This document shows, piece after piece, positions 23,629 through 54,179 of a DNA stretch of 64,000 bases. A program made the position numbers and the translations under genes. The stretch is taken from assembly GCA_049515655.1 (NCBI GenBank), contig JBEKTW010000015.1, positions 23,320-87,319 on the forward strand. Direction: 5' to 3'. The DNA comes from Bacteroidota bacterium. GTDB taxonomy: Bacteria > Bacteroidota > Ignavibacteria > UBA10030 > SZUA-254. The notes beneath the pieces were generated by a model. That model was given only the letters and a program-made list of their open reading frames with translations, did no database searches and was not told the DNA's origin. Each line of letters opens with the position of its first letter. Positions within the stretch are counted from its first letter, which is position 1.

Positions 23629-24186
23629 ATGAAGCAACTTCTCACTTTCCTGATGCTCGTTGTGTGCACGTTGTTTCTGACGAGCGGGAGCAGGGCGGAT
23701 GATAAAGCGACCAACAAATATGTTGGCGTGAAGATCTGTTCCATGTGCCACAAGTCGGAGAGCACCGGCAATCAATTTGGCATCTGGCAGAAATCGAAAC
23801 ACGCGGTGGCCTATAAAACTCTCACGAGCGACACAGCCAATGCTATCGCGAAGGCAAAAGGTTTGACGAAGCCCGCGGCGGAATCGCCCGAGTGCCTCGG
23901 ATGTCATACGATCACCGCGGATGCGAAGTTGGCAGACAAATCGTTCGACGCAAAAGACGGCGTGCAGTGCGAGGCGTGCCATGGACCGGGATCATCGTAC
24001 AAGACGATGTCCACGATGAAAGACAAAGCCAAAGCGATTGCAGCGGGCCTGACCGAATACAAGGACGACGCGGCTATTGCAGCGCATTGCCAGACGTGTC
24101 ACAATGATAAGAGCCCCACGAAGAAGGAGTTCATCTTCAAAGATATGTGGGGGAAAATCAAGCATCCGTTACCGAAGAAGTCGTAA
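23629..24186 (+). CDS. Periplasmic tetraheme cytochrome c (c554-like)
   Basis: Signal peptide, YVG..CSMCH, CLGCH, GVQCEACHGPGS, CQTCH; SD aaaggag. Confidence 0.9.
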   Translation: MKQLLTFLMLVVCTLFLTSGSRADDKATNKYVGVKICSMCHKSESTGNQFGIWQKSKHAVAYKTLTSDTANAIAKAKGLTKPAAESPECLGCHTITADAKLADKSFDAKDGVQCEACHGPGSSYKTMSTMKDKAKAIAAGLTEYKDDAAIAAHCQTCHNDKSPTKKEFIFKDMWGKIKHPLPKKS

Positions 24187-24294
24187 CGGGTCGAGATGAT
24201 TCCCTGACTATGTTCTTTGCCAGCCCGCAGAGAGCGCCTCAGACGTGACGGGGGCGACCCTGCCGGCTGGCGTGAACATAATGGTATCCGATGT

Positions 24295-26496
24295 ATGAAA
24301 AGACAAATATTTGATGTACTTGTATGCTTCAGTTTTCTGCTTGTTCTTCGACCGGGAAATGTTCTTGGACAATCCAAAGCTGATTGCCTAACCTGTCACA
24401 GCGACCATTCGCTGACGATGGACAGGAATGGAAAACAACTTTCCATTTTTGTCGACGAATCTGTTCTCAACAAATCACCCCACCAGAAGCTCGTTTGCAT
24501 CGCTTGCCATACCGGATTCGATCTTAACAATGTTCCCCACAAGGAAAAAATCGAACCGGTAAACTGTTTGACCTGTCATAAAGACGCTCCGCCCAAGCAC
24601 ACGTTCCATCCGCAGCTGGCGCAGGCAATCGCTGCCCATCAGGAACCGGACGTCTCCTGCAAAGATTGCCATGGAACGCACGACATCGTGTCGCCAAGAC
24701 TGCCGGAATCGAAATTCTACGAATCCAATGTTGCCCAGACCTGCGGAGAATGTCACGGGGACGTCAAGGACCACTTTGTTGAATCTGCCCACGGGAAAGC
24801 GCTCGCCGCAGGGGTGAAAGGGGCCCCCAACTGCCTTACGTGTCATCGGCACAGCATTACGGGAATCGGTGCGGCGCATGACAGCGTGCAGTACAAAGTG
24901 GCGCAGATGCAACTATGCCTGTCGTGCCATCTCGACAACCCTGACGTTCGCTCGCGAACTTCACCGACCGCGGGATTCATCGCCGCCTATGAGCAGAGCA
25001 TTCACGGTTCATCGCTCCTCCATGGAAATGCGCGCGCTGCAAATTGCGTCGATTGCCATGGCAGTCATGAAATGAAGAAGGGGCTTGAACCTTCGGCCCG
25101 CATGAACAGGATGAACATCCAGGAGACTTGCGCGAAGTGCCACGAAGCGATTGCCAATGAATACGCGCAAAGCGTTCACGGTGTAGCGGTGGCGAAAGGT
25201 AACCAGGATGCACCGGTATGCACAAACTGTCATGGCGAGCATAATATTCTCGCACATACCGACCCTCGTTCAAGCGTATCGGCCAAGAACCTGTCACAGC
25301 AGGTGTGTTCGCCCTGCCATAGCTCGGTGGCGCTTTCAACGAAGTACGGACTCTCGAACGATCGCTTCAAAACATTCTCGGATAGCTATCACGGGCTGGC
25401 AATCCGAGGCGGTTCCATTGAGGTTGCCAACTGCGCGAGTTGTCACGGAGCGCATGGCATTAAGCCGTCGAATGACCCCACATCTAAGACCAACAAGGCG
25501 AACCTCGCAACGACCTGCGGCAGGTGCCATCCTGGAGCGAACGAACGGTTTGCCATAGGCTCAGTCCATGTGACGATGGCGGCAAAACAGGAACCTGTAT
25601 TGTACTGGATCGCCAGCAGCTACATTATTCTGATCGTTGTTGTGGTTGGCGGCATGTTCATCCACAATCTGCTTGATTTCATCCAGAAGTCAAAAAGGAA
25701 ATTGAGAATTCGCCGCGGACTGCTTATCCACGAACAACTCGGTCATAGTCTCTACCTGCGCATGACGCTGAACGAACGCCTTCAGCATCTTTTCTTGCTC
25801 ACGAGTTTCCTGACCCTTGTTATCACCGGCTTCATGCTCCGGTTCCCCGAAGCATGGTGGGTGCAAGCGATCCGCGAGCTCAGTGATCGCGTTTTTGACC
25901 TTCGCAGCCTCATTCATCGTGTTGCAGCCGTAGTTATGGTTACGGCGAGCGTTTACCATCTTCTGTACCTTATCCTGACCGCCCGGGGCAGAGAGCTCTT
26001 CAGGGATTTGATGCCAAAACTCCAGGATGCGAAAGACGCCCTCGGTATTGCGAGATACAACCTCGGCATGTCAAGCGTGAAGCCCCGGTTCGGGAGATTC
26101 AGTTACATCGAGAAAAGCGAATACTGGGCGCTTGTTTGGGGGACCATCGTCATGGCCGCAACCGGAGCGATCATGTGGTTCGATAATACCTTTATCGGCC
26201 TGTTCACCAAGCTCGGTTACGATATTTCCCGCACAATCCACTATTATGAAGCATGGCTCGCGACACTTGCCATTATTGTATGGCACTTTTACTTCGTCAT
26301 TTTCAATCCGGACGTCTACCCAGTTAATCTGGCATTCTGGAAGGGAACGCTGACCGAGGAAGAAATGGCCGATGAACATCCGCTCGAACTGGAAGAGCTT
26401 CACAGCAAGGTGTTGGCAAGAGATCTCAACGGTTCCGGCAATATGGAAGAAGAGTTGAGTCAGGAGTTGCGCAACGGGCAACGAACCGCCGGGTAA
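24295..26496 (+). CDS. 13-heme cytochrome c fused to an FdnI/HydC-type cytochrome b (CbcL-like)
   Basis: 13 CxxCH, then TM domain with ERLQH, IHRVAA, YIEKSEYWALVWG, IHYYEAWLA. Confidence 0.88.
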   Translation: MKRQIFDVLVCFSFLLVLRPGNVLGQSKADCLTCHSDHSLTMDRNGKQLSIFVDESVLNKSPHQKLVCIACHTGFDLNNVPHKEKIEPVNCLTCHKDAPPKHTFHPQLAQAIAAHQEPDVSCKDCHGTHDIVSPRLPESKFYESNVAQTCGECHGDVKDHFVESAHGKALAAGVKGAPNCLTCHRHSITGIGAAHDSVQYKVAQMQLCLSCHLDNPDVRSRTSPTAGFIAAYEQSIHGSSLLHGNARAANCVDCHGSHEMKKGLEPSARMNRMNIQETCAKCHEAIANEYAQSVHGVAVAKGNQDAPVCTNCHGEHNILAHTDPRSSVSAKNLSQQVCSPCHSSVALSTKYGLSNDRFKTFSDSYHGLAIRGGSIEVANCASCHGAHGIKPSNDPTSKTNKANLATTCGRCHPGANERFAIGSVHVTMAAKQEPVLYWIASSYIILIVVVVGGMFIHNLLDFIQKSKRKLRIRRGLLIHEQLGHSLYLRMTLNERLQHLFLLTSFLTLVITGFMLRFPEAWWVQAIRELSDRVFDLRSLIHRVAAVVMVTASVYHLLYLILTARGRELFRDLMPKLQDAKDALGIARYNLGMSSVKPRFGRFSYIEKSEYWALVWGTIVMAATGAIMWFDNTFIGLFTKLGYDISRTIHYYEAWLATLAIIVWHFYFVIFNPDVYPVNLAFWKGTLTEEEMADEHPLELEELHSKVLARDLNGSGNMEEELSQELRNGQRTAG

Positions 26497-26499: not shown

Positions 26500-28539
26500 A
26501 TGGCCACAGGTTCTCGTACACTCGTCCGGTTCGTGCTTCTCGGCGCCATTCTGCCGGCATATCTGACCGCACGTAGCTATGCGCAGGAGAACAATGAATG
26601 CTACACTTGCCACGAAGACAAATCACTGACGGGAAAACGGAATGGTAAAACACTCTCCGTGTTCGTGGAAGCATCTAAATTCTCGGGTTCCGTTCATGGA
26701 TCTTTGAGTTGTATTTCCTGTCATGCAGACCTGGAGAAGAAGGAATTTCCCCACGATGAGGTTCTGAAACCCGTTGATTGTGGAACATGCCATTCGACGG
26801 AACAAGAGCAGCATGTGAAATCGCTTCACGGGAAGGCAATTGCGCGTGGAGATCCGCTCGCACCCCGGTGCAAGAATTGTCACGGGACGCACGACATTCT
26901 TTCGGTGAAAGACAAGAATTCACCTGTTTTTCCGCTGAAAATTCCTTTCACCTGTGGGAAATGTCATCAGGAAGGCGCCCCTGTCCAGCAGCAGCGGGTA
27001 ATCCACCAGGATCACATTCTGGAGAATTTTTCGGAGAGTATCCACGGCGAAGGACTCTTGAAAAAAGGGTTGATTGTCGCACCCAATTGTGCGTCATGCC
27101 ATACGGCCCATTCAATTCTCCCTCATACCGATCCAGCTTCATCGATCGCCCGGAAAAACATCGCAGCCACGTGCACGAAATGCCACGCGATGATCGAGAC
27201 TGTCCATCGCAAGATCATTAAAGGGGAGCTGTGGGAGAAAGAAGCCCACACCCTTCCCGCGTGTGTCGATTGCCACCAGCCCCATAAAATCCGGAAGGTT
27301 TTCTACGACCAGGGAATGGCGGACAAAGACTGCATGCACTGCCACGTGGATAAGACGCTGAAAGCATCCGATGACGGCCGGTCGTTGTTCGTTCGCGCTG
27401 ACGAGGTCGGACAATCCCGGCACGCTAAGATCGCATGCAGCCAGTGTCATTCAGGCGTCAATGCGTCGCATTTGCGACCGTGCGAGACAATCACCCAAAA
27501 GGTCGATTGTTCGTCCTGTCATGCAGAAATTGGCCAGCAGTATCAGAAAAGCACGCATGGAACATTGGTAGCAAAGAACGACCCCAACGCTCCGACATGC
27601 AAAGAGTGTCACGGTACACACAAGGTGCTGGGCAAATCGGACCCGCAATCCGTGACGTTCGCGACAAACGTTCCCGACCTCTGCGCACGGTGTCACCGTG
27701 AAGGACAGCAGGCGGCGATTCGCTACACGGGGAGCGAGCATGAAATCATCGAGCGGTACACTGAAAGCATCCATGGCAAGGGCCTGATGAAAAGCGGACT
27801 GACCGTGACAGCGATGTGCACGAATTGTCACACAGCGCACAGCGTTCTGCCGCGCATCGATTCCGCATCGAGCGTTAACCCGAGAAACTTGCCCACAACC
27901 TGCGGTCGATGTCACCATGGCATTGAAGAACAATTTGAAAAGAGCATTCACTCGGTTCTTGTCTCAACCTCCGGAAAAGAGCTGCCGGTGTGCAACGATT
28001 GCCATACGGCGCATACGATCCGGCGGACAGATGAGCAGGGTTTCAAGCTCGAAATCATGCAGCAGTGCGGGAGATGCCATCAGGAAATAACAAAAACGTA
28101 TTTTGATACGTACCATGGCAAAGTTTCTCAACTGGGATACACAAAGACGGCGAAATGCTACGATTGCCACGGCGCACATGATATTCTTCCAGTTGCGGAC
28201 CCCCGCTCTCACTTAAGCCGCGAGAATGTTGTGGCCACGTGCCAGCAATGCCATCAAGGGGCGACGCGCCGCTTCGCGGGATACCTGACGCACGCAACTC
28301 ACCATGATCCCAAGAAATATCCGTTTTTGTTCTGGACGTTCTGGGGAATGACTACATTGCTCATCGGGACATTTGTTTTTGGCGGGATTCATACGCTGTT
28401 ATGGCTTCCCCGGGCGCTTCAAATGCGACGGGCACAGCGAAAGACTCAGATTTCAATAAATTCAAACGATGGAAACGAAAGATCAAATCAAGACGACAAC
28501 ATCAATCGAAGCGGAGACGGCCCAGACACCCAGGAGTGA
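26500..28539 (+). CDS. 19-heme cytochrome c with C-terminal TM anchor
   Basis: Signal peptide, 19 CxxCH, C-terminal hydrophobic helix containing His (GGIHTLLW). Confidence 0.9.
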   Translation: MATGSRTLVRFVLLGAILPAYLTARSYAQENNECYTCHEDKSLTGKRNGKTLSVFVEASKFSGSVHGSLSCISCHADLEKKEFPHDEVLKPVDCGTCHSTEQEQHVKSLHGKAIARGDPLAPRCKNCHGTHDILSVKDKNSPVFPLKIPFTCGKCHQEGAPVQQQRVIHQDHILENFSESIHGEGLLKKGLIVAPNCASCHTAHSILPHTDPASSIARKNIAATCTKCHAMIETVHRKIIKGELWEKEAHTLPACVDCHQPHKIRKVFYDQGMADKDCMHCHVDKTLKASDDGRSLFVRADEVGQSRHAKIACSQCHSGVNASHLRPCETITQKVDCSSCHAEIGQQYQKSTHGTLVAKNDPNAPTCKECHGTHKVLGKSDPQSVTFATNVPDLCARCHREGQQAAIRYTGSEHEIIERYTESIHGKGLMKSGLTVTAMCTNCHTAHSVLPRIDSASSVNPRNLPTTCGRCHHGIEEQFEKSIHSVLVSTSGKELPVCNDCHTAHTIRRTDEQGFKLEIMQQCGRCHQEITKTYFDTYHGKVSQLGYTKTAKCYDCHGAHDILPVADPRSHLSRENVVATCQQCHQGATRRFAGYLTHATHHDPKKYPFLFWTFWGMTTLLIGTFVFGGIHTLLWLPRALQMRRAQRKTQISINSNDGNERSNQDDNINRSGDGPDTQE

Positions 28540-29371
28540 TCTGAGCGGGAAACAGTTTCAGCGTTTCACCCGGTTGAATAGAACCCTTCATGTCATCATG
28601 ATCATTAGTTTCATGAGTCTGGCTCTTACGGGTATGACGCTCAAGTTTTCCTATACGACATGGGCAGCAGTCCTTTCGCATCTTCTCGGCGGATTTGAGT
28701 CGGCGGGATATATCCACAGGGTTGCCGCAGTGTTCATGATAGGTATCTTTGTGACCCATCTTGTCGATATCATACGGATAAAGCGGGCGGAACACCGGTC
28801 GTGGCGCTCGATGATCTTCGGACCCGACTCGATGATGTTCAACAAGAAAGACCTTCGGGATTTTATCGCGTCGGTAAAATGGTTCCTCGGAAACGATACC
28901 CGCCCGAGGTTCGACCGCTGGACATATTGGGAGAAGTTCGATTACTTTGCGGTATTCTGGGGAATCGCCGTGATCGGCTCGACCGGATTAACACTGTGGT
29001 TTCCCGAATTCTTTACGCGCTTTATTCCCGGGTGGTTTATCAACGTGGCGACAATCATTCACAGCGATGAAGCCTTGCTCGCCGTGGGTTTCATTTTTAC
29101 GGTCCATTTTTTTAATACGCACCTGCGTCCCGAGAAATTTCCCATGGATATTGTTATCTTTACAGGAAGGATGGGCGTGGAAGAACTTGAACGGGATAAA
29201 CCGGGAGAGTACGAAGCGCTCGTCAGGAGTGATAAACTGAGCGAGAATCTCGTTGATCCCTATCCGCCAGTTGTCATCAAGTCGGTGCGGGTTTTCGGAT
29301 GGACGGCACTGACGATAGGTTTTTGTATGGTTGTTTGGATTATTTACGCAATGATTTTTGCATATCGGTGA
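28469..29371 (+). CDS. Cytochrome b subunit (FdnI/HydC-type), partner of the 19-heme cytochrome
   Basis: RTLH, IHRVAA, WTYWEKFDYFAVFWG, IIHSDEALLA, VHFFNTHLRP. Confidence 0.88.
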   Translation: METKDQIKTTTSIEAETAQTPRSDLSGKQFQRFTRLNRTLHVIMIISFMSLALTGMTLKFSYTTWAAVLSHLLGGFESAGYIHRVAAVFMIGIFVTHLVDIIRIKRAEHRSWRSMIFGPDSMMFNKKDLRDFIASVKWFLGNDTRPRFDRWTYWEKFDYFAVFWGIAVIGSTGLTLWFPEFFTRFIPGWFINVATIIHSDEALLAVGFIFTVHFFNTHLRPEKFPMDIVIFTGRMGVEELERDKPGEYEALVRSDKLSENLVDPYPPVVIKSVRVFGWTALTIGFCMVVWIIYAMIFAYR

Positions 29372-29374: not shown

Positions 29375-30262
29375 ATGTATAATTCGATCGTATTAGTCAA
29401 ACAAGTGCCGGACACGGCGAACATCTCCGGAAACGTCATGCGCGAAGACGGCACGGTGAACCGGGCAAAATTGCCGGCAATCTTCAATCATGAGGATAAA
29501 GTCGCCCTGGAGCTGGCGCTCCAGGTCAAAGACAAATTTGGCGGAACAGTGACGGCCATCACGATGGGCCCGCCTAGGGCGTCGGATATTCTTCGTGAGT
29601 GCCTGTACATGGGAGCCGACCGGGTGCATCTCATCAGTGATAGGAAATTCGCGGGCGCCGACACGCTGGCGACGTCGTACGTCCTCAGTGAAACGATACG
29701 AAAGATCGGCAACTACGATTTCATTTTTGCCGGAAGGCAGGCGATCGATGGCGATACCGCACAGGTCGGTCCTCAAACGGCCGAAAAGCTGGGCATCCCT
29801 CAGATCACCTACGCCGAAAAACTCATCGACGTACATGATGGTAGAGTGAAAGTGAAAAGAAAAATCGACGGCGGATTCGAGATCCTGGAGAGCACTCTGC
29901 CCGTGCTGCTGACGGTCATGAAGGACGCCGCCGTGCCGAGGCCCTACAGCGCGAAAAGGATCATGGCCTTCAAAAGCGCCAAGTCGTTGATGGAGCTTGA
30001 AAAACTCGTTGAGGGGAATTCCCTCCTTTATATCGATAAGCTGGTCGATGAGTACAAGACGCGATCATTGTACATTCCAACCCTCACGATGGACGACCTC
30101 CGGCTGGATGCAGATCGCTGCGGCATCAACGGTTCCCCTACGAAAGTTTATAAGATTGAATCCGTCGTACTGACCGGGGGTGAGCATACCATGGTCGAGC
30201 CGACGAAAGCAGGGATGAGCGCGCTGATTGGCAAATTAATGGAAGATCACATTTTTGGATGA
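29375..30262 (+). CDS. etfB: Electron transfer flavoprotein beta subunit
   Basis: KQVPDT, MGPP, FAGADTLATSY, GRQAIDGDTAQVG. Confidence 0.94.
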   Translation: MYNSIVLVKQVPDTANISGNVMREDGTVNRAKLPAIFNHEDKVALELALQVKDKFGGTVTAITMGPPRASDILRECLYMGADRVHLISDRKFAGADTLATSYVLSETIRKIGNYDFIFAGRQAIDGDTAQVGPQTAEKLGIPQITYAEKLIDVHDGRVKVKRKIDGGFEILESTLPVLLTVMKDAAVPRPYSAKRIMAFKSAKSLMELEKLVEGNSLLYIDKLVDEYKTRSLYIPTLTMDDLRLDADRCGINGSPTKVYKIESVVLTGGEHTMVEPTKAGMSALIGKLMEDHIFG

Positions 30263-31290: not shown

Positions 31291-31299
31291 CTAAAAACA

Positions 31300-44426: not shown

Positions 44427-44457
44427 CTCCATGCAGTTCTGTTTGAATGGACACTGG

Positions 44458-45115: not shown

Positions 45116-47878
45116 ATGAAGCAATCAACTACAGTTTTTCTTGTAGGATTGCTGATTTTTGCTGTTACTGGCACTGCGATGGCGACAGTTCCGACGGCAA
45201 GAATAGTGATCAGGGCTGCCTCAACGGGGCTGATCGCAAGCCATCCGAGCGAATTCAATGCAATATCGGACGGCTTGCCGAATGTCGGCCGTGGCAGCAG
45301 GGTGTGGCTTGAAGCGGCTGCCTTGGAAGGCACTGTCCCGAGCACACTCCATTACGACACGCTGACTGGCGCAACGTGGCGAGTCATCTCTGCCCCCGCC
45401 CACTCGGTTGCAACTATTCGGGCGACGGATACGGCTAATGGCTTAAAAGGCTTTACGGCGATGTTCGTTCCCGATTCATTAGGTCAATATCAAATCGGCT
45501 TGACCGTTACCACGTTGAATGGCACAAGCGCTGAAGTGACGGAGTACATTAACTCCGCAAATTATGTAGGCGTTGGGACAATCATCGGCAATTCGCCAAC
45601 CGCTCCGGAGTGCGGCGCTTGTCATAATGGAAACGTGGTGGCAGACAAAGTGACACCGTGGCAAGGAACAGCGCATGCGACGATGTTTTCGAACAGCATT
45701 GATGGGAAGAATGGGGCCTACATGAGTTTCTGCATTTCGTGTCACACGACGGGGTACAACGCCACTCCAACGGCCGTGAATAATGGCTTCGATGATCGCG
45801 CCACAGCCTATGGTTGGCATTTCCCCGACACGATAAAGGCCGGCAACTGGGATTATATGAAGGCCAACTATCCGGAAGTTGCAAAGTTGGCGAATATCCA
45901 GTGCGAAGACTGCCATGGACCTGGAAGTTTACACCTCGGTGCAATGAACAAGAATCAAATCGCAGTGAGTTGGTCGTCTGAGATGTGCGGACACTGCCAT
46001 GATGCCCCGCCGCATCACACGAAGAACGAGCAATGGAATATGACGGCCCATGCTATCTCCACGGAGGAGGGCGTGGACATTGAGGCCATGAATCGTGCCC
46101 CTTGTGCCCAATGCCACACTTCACAGGGTTTCGTCGATGTGACAATCGACGGCAACACTGATGCAGCACCGTATACGAATGTTCAGCCGGTCGGCTGCAT
46201 TGGCTGTCATGATCCCCATGACGCATCCCATCCAGCGCAACTCCGTCGCGCATCTCTGGCAGACGCGTGCACCGGATGCCACCTGACGCGCATCAGCTCT
46301 CGCGGTTTACATAGTAATACTCAGGGACCTATGCTTGCAGGAGCGAGTGCTATACCGTACAACGGGCAGGGTGGCATCGCCGGCGGAATCGATAACTGGA
46401 GTGGATGGCAGCTTGCCGGATACATGTATCCCAATTCCGCGCACTCGAGCATCACCGACAAATGCGTCACATGTCACATGGCAACGGTTCCGGCAGATTC
46501 TCTGGTAGGTAAGCTCGGCGACCATTCATTCAAAGTTGCCTACGACCAGGACAGCACGCACACGATCTTTAACACAAACGGTTGTGTGTGCCATGGTACC
46601 GGTGGAGTTGCCCCGGTCACCCAGACCTACGTCGAGCAGAGTCAGGCCAAAATAAATGCCCTTCTTGATACGCTTGCGACGTTGTTGCCTCAAAAGAGCG
46701 GTGTCGTTCGCAGTCACAATGATACATCGTATCACGCATGGACACCGTTAAAGATTGCAGGAGCGTATAATTACTATTTCGTTAACAACGATGGTAGCTT
46801 TGGCGTTCACAACCATAATTACGCAACAGCATTGCTAACCTCGTCTATCGAGCAGTTGAGACTTGTCGCCGGTGCAGCGACTATTGCCTCCATCAAAGAT
46901 GTTCCGAACGATCAGGGAAAACAGGTTCAGATTGTTTGGAATATATTCCCGACGGAACAGAGCAGCATTGATCCCGTGACACAGTATGGTGTTTGGAGAC
47001 AAGACGCTCTCTCTAGCTCAAACGTGTCAACAGTGAAATTCCATTCTTTCAGAGAGATGCTGTCCAAAGGAACGGTCGGTTCACGGTATGCCGTCAACGG
47101 ATATGTGTGGACGTATGTCGGTTATGTGCCTGCTGCCAAGCAGAGCATGTATTCCTTTGTTGCACCGACACTGTTTGATTCAACGATCAGCGCGGGCATG
47201 AAGTGGACATACTTCTATGTGACTGGATTAACCAACAACGGTGTTGTGTATAGTACGATGCCGGACAGCGGTTATTCGGTCGACAACTTGGCTCCAGCGC
47301 CACCCAGCGGAATCGGTGCACGGATCATTGCAAATACCGTCCACCTTGGGTGGAGGATATCGTTAGATCAGGACTTCAAGTACTTTGCGGTCTACCGGGG
47401 AACATCTCCCGATTTCAACCCGCATGGAACAAGTCCGCTGGCGACGACATCCGACACATCCTACGTTGATCAGAATGTTTCAGCCGGTGCGACGTATTAC
47501 TATAAACTATCTGCATTTGACTTCTCGGGTAATGAGAGCCAATATTCACCCGCTCTGACGGTAGTCGTGCTTGGTGTTGGCGAGAATAACGGCGCTCCAA
47601 GGGAGTACGCCCTTGCTCAAAACTATCCGAATCCGTTTAACCCATGGACTGAGATCAGATATCAACTTCCTGAAGTCGCTCACGTGAAAATCACAGTGTA
47701 CAACACACTCGGTGTGCAAGTTGCTACGCTGGTCGACAGGAACGAAGAAGTCGGCTATTATACCGTCACATGGGACGGGAATGACAATCGGGGTAATGTT
47801 GTTGCAAGCGGCATTTACCTCTATAAGATGGAAGCCGGTTCGTACTCGGTAGCGAAGAAGATGATCTTCATGAAGTAA
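45116..47878 (+). CDS. Multiheme cytochrome c (8 CxxCH + 1 CxCH) with Ig/FN3-like domains and T9SS type-A C-terminal sorting domain
   Basis: Signal peptide, heme region ending DGSFGVHN, DNLAPAPP..YYYKLSAFD, QNYPNPFNP..VASGIYLYKM..KKMIFMK. Confidence 0.9.
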   Translation: MKQSTTVFLVGLLIFAVTGTAMATVPTARIVIRAASTGLIASHPSEFNAISDGLPNVGRGSRVWLEAAALEGTVPSTLHYDTLTGATWRVISAPAHSVATIRATDTANGLKGFTAMFVPDSLGQYQIGLTVTTLNGTSAEVTEYINSANYVGVGTIIGNSPTAPECGACHNGNVVADKVTPWQGTAHATMFSNSIDGKNGAYMSFCISCHTTGYNATPTAVNNGFDDRATAYGWHFPDTIKAGNWDYMKANYPEVAKLANIQCEDCHGPGSLHLGAMNKNQIAVSWSSEMCGHCHDAPPHHTKNEQWNMTAHAISTEEGVDIEAMNRAPCAQCHTSQGFVDVTIDGNTDAAPYTNVQPVGCIGCHDPHDASHPAQLRRASLADACTGCHLTRISSRGLHSNTQGPMLAGASAIPYNGQGGIAGGIDNWSGWQLAGYMYPNSAHSSITDKCVTCHMATVPADSLVGKLGDHSFKVAYDQDSTHTIFNTNGCVCHGTGGVAPVTQTYVEQSQAKINALLDTLATLLPQKSGVVRSHNDTSYHAWTPLKIAGAYNYYFVNNDGSFGVHNHNYATALLTSSIEQLRLVAGAATIASIKDVPNDQGKQVQIVWNIFPTEQSSIDPVTQYGVWRQDALSSSNVSTVKFHSFREMLSKGTVGSRYAVNGYVWTYVGYVPAAKQSMYSFVAPTLFDSTISAGMKWTYFYVTGLTNNGVVYSTMPDSGYSVDNLAPAPPSGIGARIIANTVHLGWRISLDQDFKYFAVYRGTSPDFNPHGTSPLATTSDTSYVDQNVSAGATYYYKLSAFDFSGNESQYSPALTVVVLGVGENNGAPREYALAQNYPNPFNPWTEIRYQLPEVAHVKITVYNTLGVQVATLVDRNEEVGYYTVTWDGNDNRGNVVASGIYLYKMEAGSYSVAKKMIFMK

Positions 47879-47906
47879 TTCTTCAACAGAACCGGTAGAT
47901 TAACCG

Positions 47907-47942
47907 CAAGGCGTGGGTCAGTTCACGACTGCCCACGCCTTG
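47907..47942 (+). terminator. Hairpin, probable terminator or mRNA-stabilising stem
   Basis: caaggcgtggg ... cccacgccttg followed by attattt. Confidence 0.6.
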
Positions 47943-48100
47943 ATTATTTCGATAAGGGCGGAGATGTACTCATTATTCAAATTTTACGAAATGGAACCGA
48001 ATGACCGAGAAGAAAATAGTCCTTTCCTGCCGGGACTGGAAGCTTGCTCCTTGTGGAGGAATTTGCTAGATTCTCAGGCTAACGCATATTGTTGGAAGAT

Positions 48101-50119
48101 ATGAGATTCCTGGTCATTTCATTTTTCTGCTGCTCTCTTTTTGTCGCTTCTGCGGAAGCTCAGCAACGATCCGGCGGATATCTCCAGCAGGAGAAGAGTC
48201 TGATGGACGCCGAAGCTCGGCGCCACCAAGTGCTTACTCCACAAAACACAGTTGCAAGCCTCGCCGGCGATTCTTACGATGTCACCTACTACCGCCTCAA
48301 TCTGCGAATGGCGGCAGGTCATTCGATTTCCGCTGGTCTTTGGGGTGAGGTAACCGTATCCGCTTTTGTGAGTCACGCCAGCCTTGATACATTCGTCCTG
48401 GATCTGATGAAACCGATGACAGTGGATTCAGTGAGAGTTGAGGGGGTTCCCTCATCGTTTGAGCAGGATCCTGTTTCTGTTCGAATCGCACTTGGCCGCG
48501 GTTACGGTCCCGGCGAGCGGGTCACGGTCGATGTCTTTTATGAAGGCATTCCTCATCCGACGGAATTTGGGAGCTTTGAGATCGACACGGGTCGGACACC
48601 CGCTTGGATCTGGTCGCTCAGCGAACCCTACGGCGCGAGAGATTGGTGGCCGTGCAAGAATTCTCCCGGCGATAAAGCGGACTCCGCAGACATTATCGTA
48701 ACCTGCGATTCGACATTCAAGGTCGGTTCCAACGGTAAGCTCATTTCCGTTCTGAACAACGAAGACGGGACATCAACCTGGCACTGGGCAGAACGATACC
48801 CGATCTCTTCCTATCTTATTTCGGTAGCGCTCACGAATTTTGCTTCCTTTTCAAACTGGTTTAAATATTCGCCGACCGATTCGATGGAAATACTGAATTT
48901 CGTTCTGCCTGAAGATCTGTCGCAGGCCCGGGCAAATCTTCCTAGAACGGTTGACATGCTTACGATCTATTCGAGACTGTTCGGCTTGTATCCATTCATC
49001 AAAGAGAAGTACGGACACTCGGAGTTTGGATGGGGCGGGGGGATGGAACACCAGACAATGACTTCCGTCTCCGCCAGCGGTTTCGGAGAATACGTTATAT
49101 CCCATGAGCTGGCACATCAATGGTTCGGAGATATGATTACCTGCCGGACCTGGTCCGACATCTGGCTGCATGAAGGCTTCGCAGTGTATTGCACCGCGCT
49201 TTATTATGAAAAGGAATACGGCGTCGATTCATACCGGGGATTTATGGAAGACGAGATGTCCGGGGCAAAAAGCGGGGTGGGAACGATTTTCGTACAAGAC
49301 ACAACCTCGGTGGGCAATATCTTCAACGGCAACCTCGAGTACCAGAAAGGTGCAGCGGTTCTGCACATGTTGAGGCATATCCTTGGAGACAGCACGTTTT
49401 TTCATGCGATGTATAACTATGCGAATACTCCGGCATTGAGGTATTCCACTGCGATGACGGAGGATTTCAAGGCGGCGTGTGAAAATGTCTCCGGCAAGAA
49501 CCTCGATTATTTTTTCAACGAATGGATCTACGGTGAGAACTATCCACAGTACACGTACTCCTGGTCTTCACACCCCTCTTCGGATAGTTACACCGTGACA
49601 GTGCGCGTCCGTCAAGGCACCGGAACGGCAAATCCCCCTTTTTTCACAATGCCGGTTGATTTGAAGTTCACGTCTTCCGGCTGGGATACCGTCGTAACGG
49701 TGTTCAATGATTCTCAACAGCAATCGTTCACGGTGGGGATTTCGCATGATCCGACGTCGGTTCTTCTTGACAACGACGGCTGGATCCTGAAGGATGCGGC
49801 CCTCGTGCCGGACGGTGTGTTGAGACCCGCTCCGGTAGTTTCGAACTTTTCACTGGAACAGAATTATCCGAATCCGTTTAATCCTTCAACGGTCATTTGC
49901 TACCAAATTCCAAAGGCAACGCGGGTTACTATCATCATTTATGACCTGCTCGGTGCGGAAGTGGCGATGCTCGTCGACGGCCATCAGGAATCCGGAGACC
50001 ATTCGGTTATCTGGAACGGCGTGGATCGGTTCGGTCATCAGGTTGCCAGCGGAATTTACTTGTATAAGATTGAAGCGGGCACAATTCAGTCAGCGAAGAA
50101 AATGGTATATCTCAGGTAG
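48101..50119 (+). CDS. M1-family zinc aminopeptidase with T9SS C-terminal sorting domain
   Basis: GGMEH, HELAHQW..WLHEG, QNYPNPFNP CTD; TTGCTC-17-TAGATT promoter at 48044-48072. Confidence 0.92.
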   Translation: MRFLVISFFCCSLFVASAEAQQRSGGYLQQEKSLMDAEARRHQVLTPQNTVASLAGDSYDVTYYRLNLRMAAGHSISAGLWGEVTVSAFVSHASLDTFVLDLMKPMTVDSVRVEGVPSSFEQDPVSVRIALGRGYGPGERVTVDVFYEGIPHPTEFGSFEIDTGRTPAWIWSLSEPYGARDWWPCKNSPGDKADSADIIVTCDSTFKVGSNGKLISVLNNEDGTSTWHWAERYPISSYLISVALTNFASFSNWFKYSPTDSMEILNFVLPEDLSQARANLPRTVDMLTIYSRLFGLYPFIKEKYGHSEFGWGGGMEHQTMTSVSASGFGEYVISHELAHQWFGDMITCRTWSDIWLHEGFAVYCTALYYEKEYGVDSYRGFMEDEMSGAKSGVGTIFVQDTTSVGNIFNGNLEYQKGAAVLHMLRHILGDSTFFHAMYNYANTPALRYSTAMTEDFKAACENVSGKNLDYFFNEWIYGENYPQYTYSWSSHPSSDSYTVTVRVRQGTGTANPPFFTMPVDLKFTSSGWDTVVTVFNDSQQQSFTVGISHDPTSVLLDNDGWILKDAALVPDGVLRPAPVVSNFSLEQNYPNPFNPSTVICYQIPKATRVTIIIYDLLGAEVAMLVDGHQESGDHSVIWNGVDRFGHQVASGIYLYKIEAGTIQSAKKMVYLR

Positions 50120-50212
50120 CCGGATGTGCGCCGTGACCGATGTTTGATTTTATGGCGGAAGTTTACGATATTCATCAGAACCATCGTTGAAGAATAACAA
50201 AAAGGAGATTCA

Positions 50213-50347
50213 ATGTACGAATTCATGACGCAGAACCCGTTGTACATCGTCCTGCTCATTGTTCTCATTTGCTGGTTGGGAATTTTCACGTACCTTGTAC
50301 GTATCGACAAGAAGATTACACGACTTGAACAACGCATGAAAGAATAA
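50213..50347 (+). CDS. ccmD: CcmD-family heme exporter small subunit (44 aa)
   Basis: MYEFMTQNPLYIVLLIVLICWLGIFTYLVRIDKKITRLEQRMKE; single TM plus charged tail; SD aaaggag; directly upstream of ccmE; below the ORF-track cutoff. Confidence 0.8.
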   Translation: MYEFMTQNPLYIVLLIVLICWLGIFTYLVRIDKKITRLEQRMKE

Positions 50348-50356
50348 GGTGAACCG

Positions 50357-50746
50357 ATGAAAAGCAAAATCATTACCGCGAGTGTGGTTATCGTTGCGGC
50401 TCTGGTGTTCGGCGCACTCTCATTCGTGGAAAGCAATGTTGAGTACACGGACATGCAGACGGCAATGTCTTCGCACAAAAGGGTGCAGGTAAAAGGTGCA
50501 TGGGTGAGGGAAAAGGAATCGACGTTTGACGCCGACAAAGGCCAATTTGTGTTCTTCATGAAAGACGATAACGGCCAGGAAACGAAGGTCGTCTTTGATG
50601 GAGCAAAGCCGAACAATTTTGAGATCGCCAATGCGATTGTCGTGAAGGGACGCTATCAGGATGGGTATTTTCACGCGAGCGACATTCTGACGAAGTGTCC
50701 ATCGAAGTACGAGGCCAATTCAGATACAGTAAAGAAAACTCTCTAA
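50357..50746 (+). CDS. ccmE: Heme chaperone CcmE, CxxxY variant
   Basis: N-terminal TM, FHASDILTKCPSKY. Confidence 0.9.
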   Translation: MKSKIITASVVIVAALVFGALSFVESNVEYTDMQTAMSSHKRVQVKGAWVREKESTFDADKGQFVFFMKDDNGQETKVVFDGAKPNNFEIANAIVVKGRYQDGYFHASDILTKCPSKYEANSDTVKKTL

Positions 50747-50756
50747 GACCATCACG

Positions 50757-52073
50757 GTGAAATTCTTTCAACGGTTTTTGCTTCTTGTCTCCCTTCTTGC
50801 TGTTTCCTCGTTGACAAACGCTCAGCTCGTCAACGGCCGGTTCAGCACCTCCGTTTATGCGTGGCAGCAATTTGACACGGTCGGCGTTTCTCAGACCTTG
50901 GCTCGGGGATTCCAGACCCTGCAACTCGAAGTATCGCAAGGGGATGTTTCACTGCGCACATCGATGTATGGCGCTACGAATTTTTCACAGTCGTTTGGTA
51001 ATGATGGACTTATTCGCATCAACAACCTGTATCTGAGATGGAAAAACATCGAAGATGCAATGGATCTCAGCCTGGGGAGAATTCCTGTCTTTGCCGGTGT
51101 CGGCAACGGGACTTTGGACGGTGCCCTGATCAAGGCGCGGGGCATGGATGAACGCGTCTGGTTTACAGCCTACGGGGGGGCGAACGTTCTACCCGATCTA
51201 AAATCAATGAGTTTCAGCGACCTCGATCAAAAGTTTTTGATTGGAAGCCAGCTCATCACAACGTTGATTCCTCAGGCACGGATTGGTGTCAGTTATGTGA
51301 ACCGTCATATTCCACGGGAGAGCTATTGGGCAACACGCCCGGATTCACTTTTCAATCCAACGACCGTGCTTATTGTTCCGGATTCCCGGGCTCAGCAGGC
51401 AGTGGGAGTTGATGCCCGCTACGACCAGGATGGCGCGTATTCTGTTTACAGTCGGTATGATTATGATTTGAATTCCAAGTACACGCTTCGCGGACAGTTC
51501 GGCGCTCGCGTGCAGACTTCCGATCAACTTGCGCTCACGGGAGATTTCATCTATCGCGAGCCGTATGTTCCCTTTAATTCTTTCTTCACAGTCTTTCCGG
51601 TCTCTCCGATTCGTGAATTAGAGGGCGGTATCGAGTATTCTGTTTCGCCTTCCTATCATGCGTTTGGAAGATTCGCGTACGTCGGATATGTCGACGCGCT
51701 CAGCCGGCGTATTACTGTGGGAATGAACGCAGACTACGGCAGCATCAGCTATGCGGGTAGCAGCGGATATGCCGGCATCCTGAATTCATTTTATGTGCAG
51801 GGGATGTACCCGTTGTTGGATCGTACGCTTGTTCCCACGGTCGGATTTTCTTATTCCAAATACCGTTTGAGTGAAGAAGCGACCCAGGATGACAACGTGT
51901 TTGCCGGATCGTTTGGCGCGGTCGTTCGACCGTCGTCGCTCATTTCGGTCGACGCACAGGTGCAATGGCTGCACAACGACATTGCCAGTCATGATGTCCG
52001 GCTGCTTGTGAACGTGAACTATTGGTTTAATCACAATTTTAAGTTCCTCCAGCACAAGGAGGCGAGCGAATGA
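50757..52073 (+). CDS. Putative outer-membrane beta-barrel (porin of a porin-cytochrome conduit)
   Basis: Signal peptide, alternating aromatic beta-strand pattern throughout, no hemes, ATGA overlap with a multiheme gene. Confidence 0.7.
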   Translation: MKFFQRFLLLVSLLAVSSLTNAQLVNGRFSTSVYAWQQFDTVGVSQTLARGFQTLQLEVSQGDVSLRTSMYGATNFSQSFGNDGLIRINNLYLRWKNIEDAMDLSLGRIPVFAGVGNGTLDGALIKARGMDERVWFTAYGGANVLPDLKSMSFSDLDQKFLIGSQLITTLIPQARIGVSYVNRHIPRESYWATRPDSLFNPTTVLIVPDSRAQQAVGVDARYDQDGAYSVYSRYDYDLNSKYTLRGQFGARVQTSDQLALTGDFIYREPYVPFNSFFTVFPVSPIRELEGGIEYSVSPSYHAFGRFAYVGYVDALSRRITVGMNADYGSISYAGSSGYAGILNSFYVQGMYPLLDRTLVPTVGFSYSKYRLSEEATQDDNVFAGSFGAVVRPSSLISVDAQVQWLHNDIASHDVRLLVNVNYWFNHNFKFLQHKEASE

Positions 52074-53122
52074 TGCAAAGGTATATCGCTGCCGCTTTGT
52101 TCCTGGCCCTGTTCGTCGCTGTTTCCGTTGCGATGAAAGAGCCTATGCGGAAATACTGGCAGGAGGAAGACCACTCCAAGTTTATTAAGTTTTCGCATAC
52201 GTTCCACGTAAGGGAGCAGAGTATCGCCTGCGTAGATTGTCACACGGATGCCAAAGCGAGCAAGCTTTCGTCGGATAATCTTCTGCCGAATCACGAAAGC
52301 TGCAAGACGTGTCATGATGAGCAAGTTGCGGGCAATTGTACATATTGCCATACGACGAAGGATAATATTCTTCCGATAAAACGACCGGAACGCGAACTGA
52401 TATTTTCTCATGAGCTCCACGCAGGGAAACAAAATATCAATTGTGAAACGTGCCACGCCGGAACGGACACTGTCACCTTTGCAACGAGCAGGAACATGCC
52501 AGCGATGACGGCGTGTGTGAGCTGTCACGAGCAGAAAAAGATTTCAACGAATTGTGAAACCTGCCATCGCGACTTTGTTACGCTCGTTCCCGAGGATCAC
52601 CTTACAACGGATTTCCGCAAAGAGCACAAGAAGCTCACCCGACTGGGCATGAAAGATGTAACCTGTAAAACGTGTCACTCGGAGAATTTCTGTCAGGATT
52701 GCCACACGGGGACGGAGTTGCACGGCTTCTCGGGCACGAAAGACTTAATGGCCGAGCCGGCACCCAGCCCATTCGCAAAGGATTCACCGAAGCAATTGAG
52801 ACTGCAAAAAGCTCATGGGCTGAATTACCGGTTCACCCATGGCGTGGAGGCAAAATCGAAGGCGCTCGACTGCGCATCATGCCACGAACAACAAACGTTT
52901 TGCGTGACGTGTCACGAAGCCGGCGGCAACATTAACCAGCTGAAATTCAAGCCGGCATCGCACATTGCGGCCGGGTTCACGACCATCGGTAAAGGGTCCG
53001 GCGGCGGACGGCATGCTGAGCTCGCCCGGCGCGACCTCGAAAGCTGTATGTCGTGCCACGACGTGCAGGGAAATGACCCGACATGCATGTTATGTCACAC
53101 AGGAAATGGCGGAGTACGATAA
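52070..53122 (+). CDS. Periplasmic 12-heme cytochrome c (c3/c7-like repeats)
   Basis: 12 CxxCH, FSHxxH motifs, signal peptide. Confidence 0.9.
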   Translation: MMQRYIAAALFLALFVAVSVAMKEPMRKYWQEEDHSKFIKFSHTFHVREQSIACVDCHTDAKASKLSSDNLLPNHESCKTCHDEQVAGNCTYCHTTKDNILPIKRPERELIFSHELHAGKQNINCETCHAGTDTVTFATSRNMPAMTACVSCHEQKKISTNCETCHRDFVTLVPEDHLTTDFRKEHKKLTRLGMKDVTCKTCHSENFCQDCHTGTELHGFSGTKDLMAEPAPSPFAKDSPKQLRLQKAHGLNYRFTHGVEAKSKALDCASCHEQQTFCVTCHEAGGNINQLKFKPASHIAAGFTTIGKGSGGGRHAELARRDLESCMSCHDVQGNDPTCMLCHTGNGGVR

Positions 53123-53126
53123 CTGC

Positions 53127-54179
53127 ATGAGAAAGCTTGAATCCATCTGTGTATCGTTTGCTCTTGCCGGTCTTATGCTCCATCCCGGATGCACGAAACT
53201 GGACGAAGGATTGCCGGCGCCGACAAGCGGTCAAGTGCAGGTTCATCCGGCCGGGTGGGGCGACACCAACTCGACGAGTTTTCACGGCAAATTCTTGAGC
53301 GCAAAAGCATGGCAATTGAGCAACTGCACGCCATGCCATGGGGACGCGCTTGGGGGCGGGACGGCCGGAGTGTCCTGCTTCACATGCCATAAATCCTATC
53401 CCCACAGCGCCGGATGGACAGATTCAACAACGGCAGGACTCCACGGAAATTTCATCCAGGCATCGGGATGGGATATGCGTCAATGCCAGACGTGCCACGG
53501 AGTCACCTACGCAGGAGGACGAGTGAACGTTTCGTGCCTGACGTGCCACACAAAACCAAACGGTCCCGAGAACTGCACAACTTGTCACGGTGGAATCAAC
53601 GCGGCTCCGCCAAGAGATCTCAGCGGGAATACGTCGACAACTGCACGTGGCGTCGGTGCGCATCAGGCTCATCTGCTCGGAAGCTCTCTCGCCTCACCGT
53701 TGCTCTGCTCCGAGTGCCATAATGTTCCCTCGTCGGTGTATCAAGCCGGGCACATTGGTTCTACCGGTCATGCTGAGATACACTTCAACGGTCCGCTCGG
53801 CACGTTGAAAACAGCCGGCGGGACGTTTGTTCCAGCGCCGTCGTATGACGTAACAACGGGCAAGTGCAGCAATACATTCTGTCACGGCAACTGGCGTCAC
53901 GAGGAATCGACTTCTGCGTACCAATGGGCGTTCAAGGATACGGTCATGGCAGGCGCAAACTATTCTCCTTCATGGACAGGAGGTTCTTCCGAATCTGCGT
54001 GCGATAGTAGTTGTCACGGTTTGCCGCCGGCTGGGCACCTCCAGACGGCAGACAAGTGCGCTCAGTGTCACACCGGGGTTGTGGACTTCAGCGGCAACAT
54101 CATCGACTCGACGAAACACATTAACGGAAAAGTAGACGTCTTCGGGCAAGATACAACGATTTTCCATTCTCAACTGTGA
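53127..54179 (+). CDS. Probable lipoprotein multiheme cytochrome c (7 CxxCH + CX4CH + CX3CH)
   Basis: Signal ending LHPGC, CSNTFCHG, CDSSCHG, HINGKVD. Confidence 0.85.
   Translation: MRKLESICVSFALAGLMLHPGCTKLDEGLPAPTSGQVQVHPAGWGDTNSTSFHGKFLSAKAWQLSNCTPCHGDALGGGTAGVSCFTCHKSYPHSAGWTDSTTAGLHGNFIQASGWDMRQCQTCHGVTYAGGRVNVSCLTCHTKPNGPENCTTCHGGINAAPPRDLSGNTSTTARGVGAHQAHLLGSSLASPLLCSECHNVPSSVYQAGHIGSTGHAEIHFNGPLGTLKTAGGTFVPAPSYDVTTGKCSNTFCHGNWRHEESTSAYQWAFKDTVMAGANYSPSWTGGSSESACDSSCHGLPPAGHLQTADKCAQCHTGVVDFSGNIIDSTKHINGKVDVFGQDTTIFHSQL

Follow-up and report, generated by a model that had tools for sequence, protein, structure and literature searches.

Does one continuous stretch of DNA in an uncultured bacterium encode a complete route by which electrons could pass from the quinol pool to the outside of the cell? 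This question is raised by a cytochrome locus (23629-54179, + strand) within a 64 kb stretch of DNA, hereafter the window (G000:C15:23320-87319), from genome G000, an assembly of 4.10 Mb in 54 contigs with a completeness score of 100%. An earlier note, made from the sequence of the window alone, had described the locus as an apparently complete quinol-to-exterior conduit of a bacterium of the Fibrobacteres-Chlorobi-Bacteroidetes (FCB) group. The taxonomic placement was correct, the class being Ignavibacteria, and we consider it probable that the locus is a multi-operon island for extracellular electron transfer (EET) in an uncultured, peat-associated member of this class. Homology, protein fold, and synteny all lend good support to the reading of the locus as an EET route.

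The locus was mapped using Pfam and NCBIfam scans, together with our own motif and hydropathy script for heme motifs and transmembrane (TM) helices. All long open reading frames (ORFs) between 19.6 and 54.3 kb are on the + strand, and the genes named in the earlier note were all found there, each in its place. Eight multiheme cytochromes, encoded from 23629 to 54179, contain 80 CXXCH motifs in sum: four in ORF 23629-24186, 13 in 24217-26496, 19 in 26500-28539, six in 34483-35979, 11 in 37511-38998, eight in 45074-47878, 12 in 52070-53122, and seven in 52965-54179. Four atypical motifs (a CX3CH in the heptaheme protein at 34483, a CX3CH and a CX4CH in 52965-54179, and a CXCH in 45074-47878) and a single CXXCH in a histidine kinase (41367-42893) bring the total to 85 motifs in nine proteins, in agreement with the nine heme-c proteins and about 85 motifs counted previously. 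Only 12 ORFs in the 4.1-Mb genome have at least three CXXCH motifs; eight of these, carrying 80 of the 141 motifs, are in the locus, a degree of clustering beyond chance. Contigs of an independent peat metagenome (X2), at 95-100% identity, span 34428-38312, 38312-41992, 42054-48078, 48067-51263, and 51427-54200, leaving 41992-42054 and 51263-51427 unbridged. Two runs of adjacent genes, one of activator, receiver, type IX secretion system (T9SS)-tagged cytochrome, and M1 peptidase, the other of M1 peptidase, ccmDE, and barrel, are thus also present outside the source sample, which rules out an assembly chimera. Sequencing runs, other than the possible source, that contain at least one-fifth of the sampled words were six peat metagenomes and one wetland metagenome.

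A candidate for the outer-membrane crossing is encoded by three genes at the 3' end of the locus. The first (50757-52073, + strand) encodes a 438-aa protein without a Pfam or NCBIfam name. AlphaFold2 (AF2), run on an alignment of 84 family members, models it as a signal-peptide helix followed by 24 β-strands over residues 23-428, with a mean predicted local distance difference test score (pLDDT) of 93.9 and a predicted template modeling score (pTM) of 0.85. Foldseek yielded 323 matches in the PDB at E <= 0.001 (best E 5.6e-12), and those listed were all outer-membrane barrels (among them FimD and PapC ushers, Occ/OprD porins, and AlgE), confirming the β-barrel on which the earlier note had staked its reading. 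The family is a large one: thresholds of E <= 0.001 and E <= 1e-30 gave 496 and 124 representative clusters, respectively. The second gene (52070-53122, + strand) encodes a periplasmic cytochrome with 12 CXXCH motifs, all invariant in 24 sequences, which we propose as the barrel-threading subunit. The third (53127-54179, + strand; ORF opening at 52965) encodes a lipoprotein cytochrome with seven CXXCH, one CX3CH, and one CX4CH motif; its match to the CxxxxCH/CxxCH domain TIGR01904, at 25.2 bits, falls under the cut-off of 27, and the lipobox cysteine is kept in all seven homolog N-termini seen whole (15 homologs listed). The residues that follow this cysteine are of the type S/T-E/K-L-K/R-D/E (CTKLDE, CSELKK, CSELRKDL, and CSKLREDL in window 53127-53200 and homologs), which we take to resemble the surface-lipoprotein export signal of Bacteroidota. 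Gene spacing is tight throughout, at 10 nt from ccmE to the barrel gene, -4 nt from there to the 12-heme gene, and 4 nt from the latter to the lipoprotein gene. In all 25 related loci that reach past the barrel, a homolog of the 12-heme cytochrome lies directly 3' of it, with 11-14 heme motifs (six in one truncated case), and in most of the related loci the lipoprotein cytochrome comes next.

This arrangement is that of the porin-cytochrome (Pcc) systems: a porin-like barrel is encoded beside cytochromes, with a periplasmic multiheme and an outer-membrane lipoprotein multiheme cytochrome in one cluster. The gene order of porin, periplasmic cytochrome, and outer cytochrome matches the ombB-omaB-omcB order as given by Shi et al. 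(2014), who also report such a complex for Ignavibacterium album (IALB_1837/1838), with a periplasmic partner of 400 aa and 14 hemes (IALB_1838) and an outer cytochrome that has atypical motifs. The outer cytochrome in the window likewise carries atypical CX3-4CH motifs, and its periplasmic partner, with 12 hemes in the window, has 14 in many relatives, as does IALB_1838. Unlike the described Pcc clusters, the operon is headed by ccmD and ccmE and has an additional T9SS-tagged cytochrome nearby, and its barrel, without a match to any named family, is set beside OmbB by gene order and not by sequence. Filing the barrel as OmbB was rejected, as no link to OmbB or another named family was found. 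The MtrCAB complex of Shewanella follows the same logic, a periplasmic multiheme cytochrome in a barrel and a surface multiheme cytochrome outside; MtrB, a barrel of 26 strands, was however absent among the best 50 of the 323 fold matches.

What would stand beyond the barrel? The gene at 45116-47878 (+ strand; ORF opening at 45074) encodes a multiheme cytochrome with eight CXXCH motifs and one CXCH that, judged by its sequence, is a homolog of the surface reductase OcwA fused to a type A T9SS sorting domain, an identity that the earlier note had missed. The protein is laid out as a signal peptide, an N-terminal β-sandwich, the heme region, FN3-like domains, and the sorting domain. In a search of the PDB with a profile of 68 family members, OcwA (6i5b) matched over the whole heme domain at E 2.4e-43, followed by 6qvm (E 8.7e-31), which we take to be Carboxydothermus OmhA, by chain 6r2q_A (E 1.2e-13) of what is presumably MtrCAB, and by octaheme and pentaheme nitrite reductases. 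No MtrC-type structure was found among the 42 PDB matches of this profile; the Pfam family of MtrC/MtrF domain II/IV (PF22113) did match the protein at 42.7 bits. The AF2 model (pLDDT 88.2) has a signal helix, a β-sandwich at 27-148, the heme region, three long helices within 503-585, further β-sandwiches, and a C-terminal β-sandwich at 845-918. The three helices form a bundle (503-523, 544-557, and 564-585), which together with the homology of the heme domain is as expected of an OcwA/NrfA-type protein. Whole-model Foldseek searches were set aside as uninformative on the heme domain, since the FN3-like tandem dominates them (insulin receptor, contactins, and PorU).

OcwA itself is described as a nonaheme cell-surface terminal reductase of Thermincola potens that reduces iron oxides and electrodes and is built of c554-like hemes, NrfA-like hemes, and a three-helix bundle. 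The window's protein has the same succession along a heme domain that is homologous throughout, and nine CXXCH motifs are found in the wider family (60 of 68 sequences). Unlike OcwA, which comes from a Gram-positive bacterium, it belongs to a diderm host; it further differs in its extra N-terminal β-sandwich, its FN3-like domains, its sorting domain, and its ninth motif, which is C-V-C-H, so that eight CXXCH motifs are present instead of nine. This ninth site (window 46580-46594; residues 503-507 of the 45074 ORF) reads C-V/I-C-H in eight of the 68 relatives, all at least 66% identical to the window's protein. A sequencing error was rejected as its source, the motif being common to eight independent sequences.

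The heme domain also belongs to the superfamily of NrfA, octaheme nitrite reductase, and MccA (matches at E 5.6e-13 to 1.7e-08), which raises the alternative that the T9SS-tagged cytochrome acts, in secreted form or at the surface, on soluble nitrogen or sulfur oxyanions or in detoxification, and not as a mineral reductase. OcwA is itself reported to reduce nitrite and to turn over hydroxylamine; the reported nitrite turnover is, however, very slow (kcat 1 per minute). A motif scan found no CXXCK in the surface cytochrome, an extracellular reductase of small anions would still need an electron supply across the outer membrane, and the protein co-occurs strictly with the Pcc-type barrel (discussed later). 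We regard a soluble-substrate enzyme as very unlikely.

Placement of this cytochrome outside the cell by the T9SS, proposed in the earlier note, is upheld insofar as the protein has the required tag and the genome the machinery. The sorting domain matches TIGR04183 at 32.8 bits (cut-off 23), as expected of type A, and PF18962 at 25.0 bits, just under the cut-off of 27; a Sec signal peptide (MKQSTTVFLVGLLIFAVTGTAMA), read by eye, is in keeping with T9SS cargo; and SprA (860 bits) and PorV (252.7 bits; cut-off 250) are both encoded in the genome. Among the 131 ORFs of the genome that end in a sorting domain, only the surface cytochrome has any CXXCH. PF18962 is found on 70 of the 120 homologs listed, the named carriers being Ignavibacteriae, Bacteroidota, KSB1, and Kryptoniota; the Deltaproteobacteria and Limisphaerales relatives listed are without it. 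In Shewanella, the surface cytochromes are lipoproteins that reach the exterior by type II secretion and not via the T9SS. Full-text searches of one library found no paper that treats the T9SS together with multiheme or c-type cytochromes. The signal peptide and sorting domain suggest that the window's cytochrome may be exported by the T9SS. A broader proposal, to which we give somewhat less than an even chance, is that the T9SS serves as the export and anchoring route for holo-multiheme cytochromes in Ignavibacteria and other FCB bacteria: an OcwA-type reductase would be loaded with heme by the cytochrome c maturation (Ccm) system, pass folded through the SprA translocon, and be fixed to the cell surface by the T9SS sortase beside a Pcc conduit, the outer part being a cassette exchanged among sister species and the inner quinol oxidases remaining fixed.

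At the inner membrane, the locus encodes four candidate quinol-oxidizing modules. The first is an ImcH-like heptaheme quinol oxidoreductase (34483-35979, + strand) with three N-terminal TM helices (hydropathy segments 9-41, 41-73, and 96-120) and a NapC/NirT domain (PF03264, 41.2 bits, cut-off 24.1, residues 99-186). Its first heme motif is a CX3CH (CGETCH at residue 130), followed by six CXXCH, and all are invariant in 14 of 14 sequences. These are the traits given for ImcH by Levar 2014 and a 2023 ImcH preprint, where the TM helices at the N-terminus number three, a CXXXCH is the first of seven heme motifs, and the protein is homologous to NapC/NirT. The heme-1 and quinol-pocket residues of Geobacter ImcH (H137, Q179, K173, Y188, and E127) correspond to H135, Q177, K171, Y186, and D125 here, a mapping made by a constant offset of -2 alone and not by alignment to GSU3259; the 14 homologous sequences (50-100% identity) share the H, K, and Q without exception and have an acidic residue (D or E) at position 125 and either Y or F at position 186. 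In its length of about 500 aa, three TM helices, NapC/NirT domain, seven motifs, and spacing of the His/Gln-ligated heme-1 pocket, the protein thus resembles ImcH of Geobacter sulfurreducens (GSU3259). Whereas imcH is monocistronic in Geobacter (Levar 2014), the gene here is in an operon with ccmF and the second module, a bc-type complex (35992-38998, + strand) consisting of a Rieske protein (35992; PF00355, 51.1 bits), a b6-type cytochrome b (36444; PF00033, 165.5 bits), and an 11-heme cytochrome (37511-38998; 11 CXXCH) anchored by a C-terminal TM helix. The genes of this complex overlap or are 12 nt apart.

The third module is a CbcL-like fusion (24295-26496, + strand; ORF opening at 24217) of a 13-heme periplasmic domain (13 CXXCH) with a diheme b-type membrane domain of the HydC/FdnI-like kind (PF01292, cytochrome b561-type, 50.9 bits, cut-off 30.1), which is the architecture of CbcL. 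All 13 hemes and the TM histidines H483, H524, H567, H581, H675, and H690 are invariant in nine of nine sequences. The pattern of these histidines (H483, H524, H567/H581, and H675 with H690), in which the helix numbering is our own reading of the hydropathy profile, is that given in the CbcBA preprint. The fourth module is split into a 19-heme cytochrome (26500-28539, + strand; 19 CXXCH) with a C-terminal TM anchor and a separate FdnI-type cytochrome b (28469-29371, + strand; PF01292 at 28 bits, under the 30.1 cut-off). Its b domain is 30% identical to that of the fusion (E 1.8e-24) and its heme domain 28% (E 1.3e-49), so that the pair is, on these alignments, a split paralog of the fusion. 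As in CbcL and CbcBA, periplasmic multihemes are joined to a diheme b domain in which each early TM helix carries a single His and the fifth carries two, the c-subunit of a further, split version is anchored by a C-terminal helix as in CbcA, and a sigma54 response regulator adjoins the genes, as does BccR. The hemes here number 13 and 19 versus nine and seven, and the split pair is paralogous to the fusion, whereas CbcL and CbcBA are said in the CbcBA preprint to share no homology. Architecture, motifs, published residues, and conservation together bear out the identification of the heptaheme protein as ImcH-like and of the fusion as CbcL-like. The description of the system as "potential-switchable" was overstated: ImcH is reported to be needed only for acceptors above about -0.1 V (Levar 2014; CbcBA preprint), and a dependence on redox potential in this bacterium may be proposed only by analogy with Geobacter.

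Between the two membranes, a c554-like tetraheme cytochrome (23629-24186, + strand; four CXXCH; PF13435, 61.6 bits), with a Sec signal peptide read by eye, is the predicted periplasmic carrier, and a homolog of it lies immediately 5' of the barrel gene in most related loci. The compartments assigned in the earlier note, here as for the other cytochromes, all held under testing.

Heme attachment appears to proceed by System I, as had been predicted. The locus includes a CcmF-type heme lyase (39011-41269, + strand; PF01578 and PF16327; TIGR00353 at 256 bits, under the 569 cut-off), as well as ccmD and ccmE (50213-50347 and 50357-50746, + strand), which are the first genes of the barrel operon; the former is a 44-aa CcmD_alt ORF (PF20077, 30.4 bits, cut-off 23.5), and the latter matches PF03100 at 56.6 bits and encodes the single CcmE of the genome. 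A genome search with PF01578 gave two matches, the CcmF at the locus and a CcmC on contig C2 with ccmA and ccmB beside it. CcmA-F are thus found, and no CcsA-type System II protein was among the matches of this search. Pfam matches identified ccmDEF, as well as both of the sigma54 two-component systems that the earlier note had listed. We rejected the idea that CcmF and CcmE are extra paralogs dedicated to the atypical heme motifs, because each is the sole copy in the genome. The C-terminus of CcmE (50357-50746) ends in KCPSKY, with a Cys in place of the heme-binding His of the classical HxxxY motif; we take it to be the CXXXY variant, as in archaea and Desulfovibrio.

Placed in order, these components would form the following route. 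Menaquinol would give up its electrons to one or another of up to four inner-membrane modules (the ImcH-type heptaheme protein, the CbcL-type 13-heme fusion, the split 19-heme protein with its cytochrome b, and the Rieske/cytochrome b complex with its 11-heme partner), and the electrons would cross the periplasm on the tetraheme cytochrome. They would then pass the outer membrane through a Pcc-type complex, with the 12-heme cytochrome inside the barrel of about 24 strands and the surface lipoprotein cytochrome as its cap, and reach the OcwA-like cytochrome, which would be matured by Ccm in the periplasm, exported folded via the T9SS, and probably tethered to the surface. This last protein would reduce Fe(III) minerals, humics, or a partner. 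Both the physical order of the carriers and the outward direction of flow are the arrangement that we infer from the gene content. The same machinery could run in reverse, with Fe(II), reduced humics, a syntrophic partner, or a cathode-like mineral as the source of electrons delivered to the quinone pool or periplasmic reductases. Sequence does not fix direction, a Rieske/cytochrome b complex could run backwards, and Zhong and Shi 2018 report homologs of CbcL, MtoC, and MtrH in metal reducers and oxidizers alike and consider them probably bidirectional. Electron uptake is nevertheless quite unlikely in our estimation: ImcH homologs are tied to the reduction of extracellular acceptors in the accounts published so far (Levar 2014; 2023 preprint), the solved structure nearest to the surface protein is that of OcwA, described as a terminal reductase, and cultured Ignavibacteria are described as Fe(III) reducers in published accounts.

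Is the association of inner and outer modules preserved in relatives? The barrel family was found at 30 loci in GTDB species genomes, all of them metagenome bins, labeled Ignavibacteria, Ignavibacteriae, Ignavibacteriota, Ignavibacteriales, Ignavibacteriaceae, or Bacteroidota, with four labeled Chlorobiaceae or Chitinophagales. CbcL-like and ImcH-like genes are directly 5' of the trio of barrel, 12-heme, and lipoprotein genes in seven of the 30 (L033, L034, L035, L038, L043, L052, and L037, the last without the 13-heme fusion), and the synteny across Ignavibacteria that the earlier note had wished to see checked therefore exists for inner and outer modules. Among 40 relatives of the same family or order, the barrel is present in 21, the fusion in 31, and a full-length ortholog of the T9SS-tagged cytochrome in nine; an ImcH-like match is present in 32, full-length at 49% identity or more in 31 and limited to a 32-residue stretch in G040. 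A set of 300 genomes sampled evenly over the phylum gave barrel matches in 49 of the 69 members of the class and in one of the 231 other genomes; for the OcwA-like domain (E <= 1e-30) the corresponding numbers were 29 and one. Each of the 30 genomes with this domain also encodes the barrel, and the domain is missing from all 250 genomes in which no barrel was found; as these genomes are mutually related and not independent samples, this is to be read as a pattern and not as a statistic.

Comparison with G001, a genome of the same genus, separates the locus into two parts. G001 is collinear from the tetraheme gene to ccmF and continues with the kinase, sigma54 activator, M1 peptidase, ccmE, and icd genes in the same order; the collinear genes are 83-99% identical, the receiver-only gene alone being divergent (50%). 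In G001, icd directly follows ccmE, and the trio is missing exactly there. From the receiver-only gene to the M1 peptidase gene, G001 has a different set of 9 kb (8056-16853 of L055, G001:C3:848000-867999; compared with window 44866-54179), consisting of an 8-heme protein, a 4-heme protein, a large lipoprotein cytochrome, two barrel-like proteins, and two NHL-repeat proteins, one with a lipobox. This comparison indicates that the inner modules are stable and that the outer module is a swappable cassette, which the earlier note had missed.

The exchange in G001 also bears on another explanation, according to which the locus is a cytochrome island without a pathway, that is, independent respiratory modules with different acceptors, gathered at the genome's sole ccmD, ccmE, and ccmF, with the outer components not drawing specifically on the inner ones. 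Consistent with such an island, gene spacing indicates at least five transcription units, unrelated genes are interspersed (those for electron-transfer flavoprotein and acyl-CoA dehydrogenase, the M1 peptidase gene, and an unknown ORF), the only CcmE and CcmF of the genome are encoded here, G001 keeps the inner modules with a different outer cassette, and a second locus with giant cytochromes is present on contig C6. In many relatives, however (L033-L035, L043, and L052), the CbcL-like, ImcH-like, and bc genes run directly into those of the tetraheme cytochrome, barrel, 12-heme cytochrome, and lipoprotein cytochrome, and such uninterrupted inner-to-outer runs are hard to explain without a functional link. 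Further, in the 300-genome sample the OcwA-like cytochrome occurs only in barrel-bearing genomes. A pathway-less island therefore seems unlikely to us.

The regulatory genes of the locus suggest how an EET route might be switched on. A kinase with a HAMP domain (41367-42893) and a sigma54-dependent response regulator (42900-44270), both identified by Pfam on the + strand, precede a single-domain response regulator (44422-44865, + strand; PF00072, 96.5 bits). The only two exact sigma54 elements in the window, each matching 11 of 11 consensus positions, are both 3' of this activator. One (TGGCAC-N5-TTGCA; 44411-44426, + strand) is before the receiver-only gene, in the same place as in G001 and G013, and the other is a -24/-12 element (45044-45059, + strand) 57 nt 5' of the ATG of the surface cytochrome. 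The kinase has a single CXXCH at residue 156, in a periplasmic loop between two TM helices, which is kept in four of six sequences including its own, and a match to the Tll0287-like heme-binding, PAS-like fold at 19.4 bits, under the 24.1 cut-off; the kinase may be a heme-based redox sensor. This periplasmic, possibly heme-sensing kinase and the sigma54 activator would switch on at least the surface cytochrome. A second pair, a PAS histidine kinase (19585-21138; PAS, HisKA, and HATPase_c) and a sigma54-dependent response regulator (21156-22505; Response_reg, Sigma54_activat at 238.7 bits, and HTH_8), is located upstream on the + strand; a homolog of this regulator heads the compact clusters of relatives. 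It is followed by a sigma54-like -24/-12 element (22741-22756, + strand) that matches 10 of 11 consensus positions, 61 nt 5' of a 153-aa ORF (22817-23278, + strand) with a weak receiver match (PF00072, 22.4 bits, under the 30.2 cut-off). Control of a bc-cytochrome operon by a sigma54 regulator, BccR, is described for Geobacter in the CbcBA preprint. Scans for sigma70 promoters and terminators, which did not cover Bacteroidota-type promoters, were not above shuffles (15 vs 11.1 and 17 vs 14.7; 20 vs 15.1 and 25 vs 19.2), and the one element of note from them is a terminator-like hairpin with a 10-bp stem and T-run (54239-54264, + strand), 60 nt past the last gene. The terms "co-regulated" and "self-contained" in the earlier note were too strong: there are at least five transcription units, with sigma54 motifs at three sites only, and both ccmABC and the T9SS machinery are on other contigs.

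A number of observations weigh against the EET-route reading. The locus is not one operon; a motif scan found no sigma54 element before the ImcH/bc operon or the ccmD-barrel operon, a search upstream of the surface cytochrome gene in two relatives, L024 and L057, found no element of the 45044 type, and in a run search no RNA run was listed as containing 45000-54200. The predicted complex of the barrel with the 12-heme cytochrome scored 0.60, versus 0.00 for the best of three controls, which we grade as weak support for the complex; the contacts agree to 70% or more among three runs, and the partner has a pLDDT of 66 or higher. Calibration of this score put 58 of 80 solved complexes and two of 110 mismatched pairs at or above the mark, and scores that passed at 0.60 or lower comprised seven of the 80 and both passing mismatches. 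For the barrel, neither Pfam nor NCBIfam gave a link to a named family, and every entry retrieved by a profile search of named proteins was a "hypothetical protein" from an Ignavibacteria or Bacteroidota bin; in the Atlas it fell among unnamed clusters only, the nearest named ones being generic outer-membrane barrels at 0.92, which we treat as leads only. Membership in the ImcH, CbcL, and OmbB groups is proposed from architecture and published residue numbers, not from direct alignment with the Geobacter proteins. In the surface cytochrome the ninth heme motif is CXCH in its clade (8 of 68 sequences), and to our knowledge Ccm systems do not process this spacing. OcwA, its closest solved homolog, is described as also turning over nitrite and hydroxylamine. 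Finally, two genomes break the association of parts: G005 has a full-length ortholog of the surface cytochrome, yet gave no barrel match to a single-protein query, and G001 keeps the inner-membrane modules at 86-99% identity with the barrel trio and OcwA-like gene absent, indicating that the inner modules are independent of this particular outer route.

Several genes that the earlier note did not mention are interspersed among those of the cytochromes, including the single-domain regulator at 44422. Genes for etfB, etfA, and an acyl-CoA dehydrogenase (29375-33021, + strand; Pfam and NCBIfam) begin 3 nt after the cytochrome b gene; this insertion is also in G001 and G013 and not in the compact clusters of other relatives, and it may either feed electrons from fatty acids directly into the conduit or be there by chance. 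An unknown ORF without a family match (33479-34333, + strand; ORF opening at 33359) falls in the 2 kb bin where GC content is lowest in the window (0.464), and looks like a recent insertion because it was not found at that position in G001 or G013. The M1 metallopeptidase (48089-50119, + strand; Pfam and NCBIfam), which itself has a T9SS sorting domain, is probably a syntenic neighbor outside the conduit; its gene adjoins ccmE in G001, lies close to the trio in L028 and L032, and shows no evident link to electron transfer.

The second cytochrome locus of the genome (G000:C6:11428-17557; L059 3428-9557) encodes adjoining 20-heme and 25-heme proteins, flanked by proteins of 328 and 530 aa without a Pfam match. 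An FeS/pyridine-nucleotide oxidoreductase is encoded next, and the locus may form a further conduit across the outer membrane.

How much of this is new? EET by Ignavibacteria has been inferred in aquifers, hot springs, peat, and bioelectrodes, and its parts have so far been reported piecemeal. Geobacter-like Pcc clusters are described in Ignavibacteria bins (Arbour et al. 2020; Fortney et al. 2018), and homologs of ImcH (three) and CbcL (two) are already listed in Ignavibacteriae by Zhong and Shi 2018, so that the novelty claimed in the earlier note was inflated. Most parts of the locus are of kinds known in the class; the new points are the OcwA homolog with its T9SS tag, the strictness with which it accompanies the barrel, and the exchange of the outer cassette.

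The locus brings a complete candidate path together in one stretch of DNA, and still more compact versions are present in relatives. The co-occurrence of the barrel and the OcwA-like cytochrome is a possible marker of EET capacity for FCB metagenome bins from iron- and humic-rich wetlands. The T9SS tag on an OcwA homolog suggests how diderm bacteria of the FCB group put a large holo-cytochrome on their surface, using a type of terminal reductase otherwise known from Gram-positive cell walls. If true, the T9SS route would be a third, independent way for bacteria to place respiratory cytochromes outside the cell.

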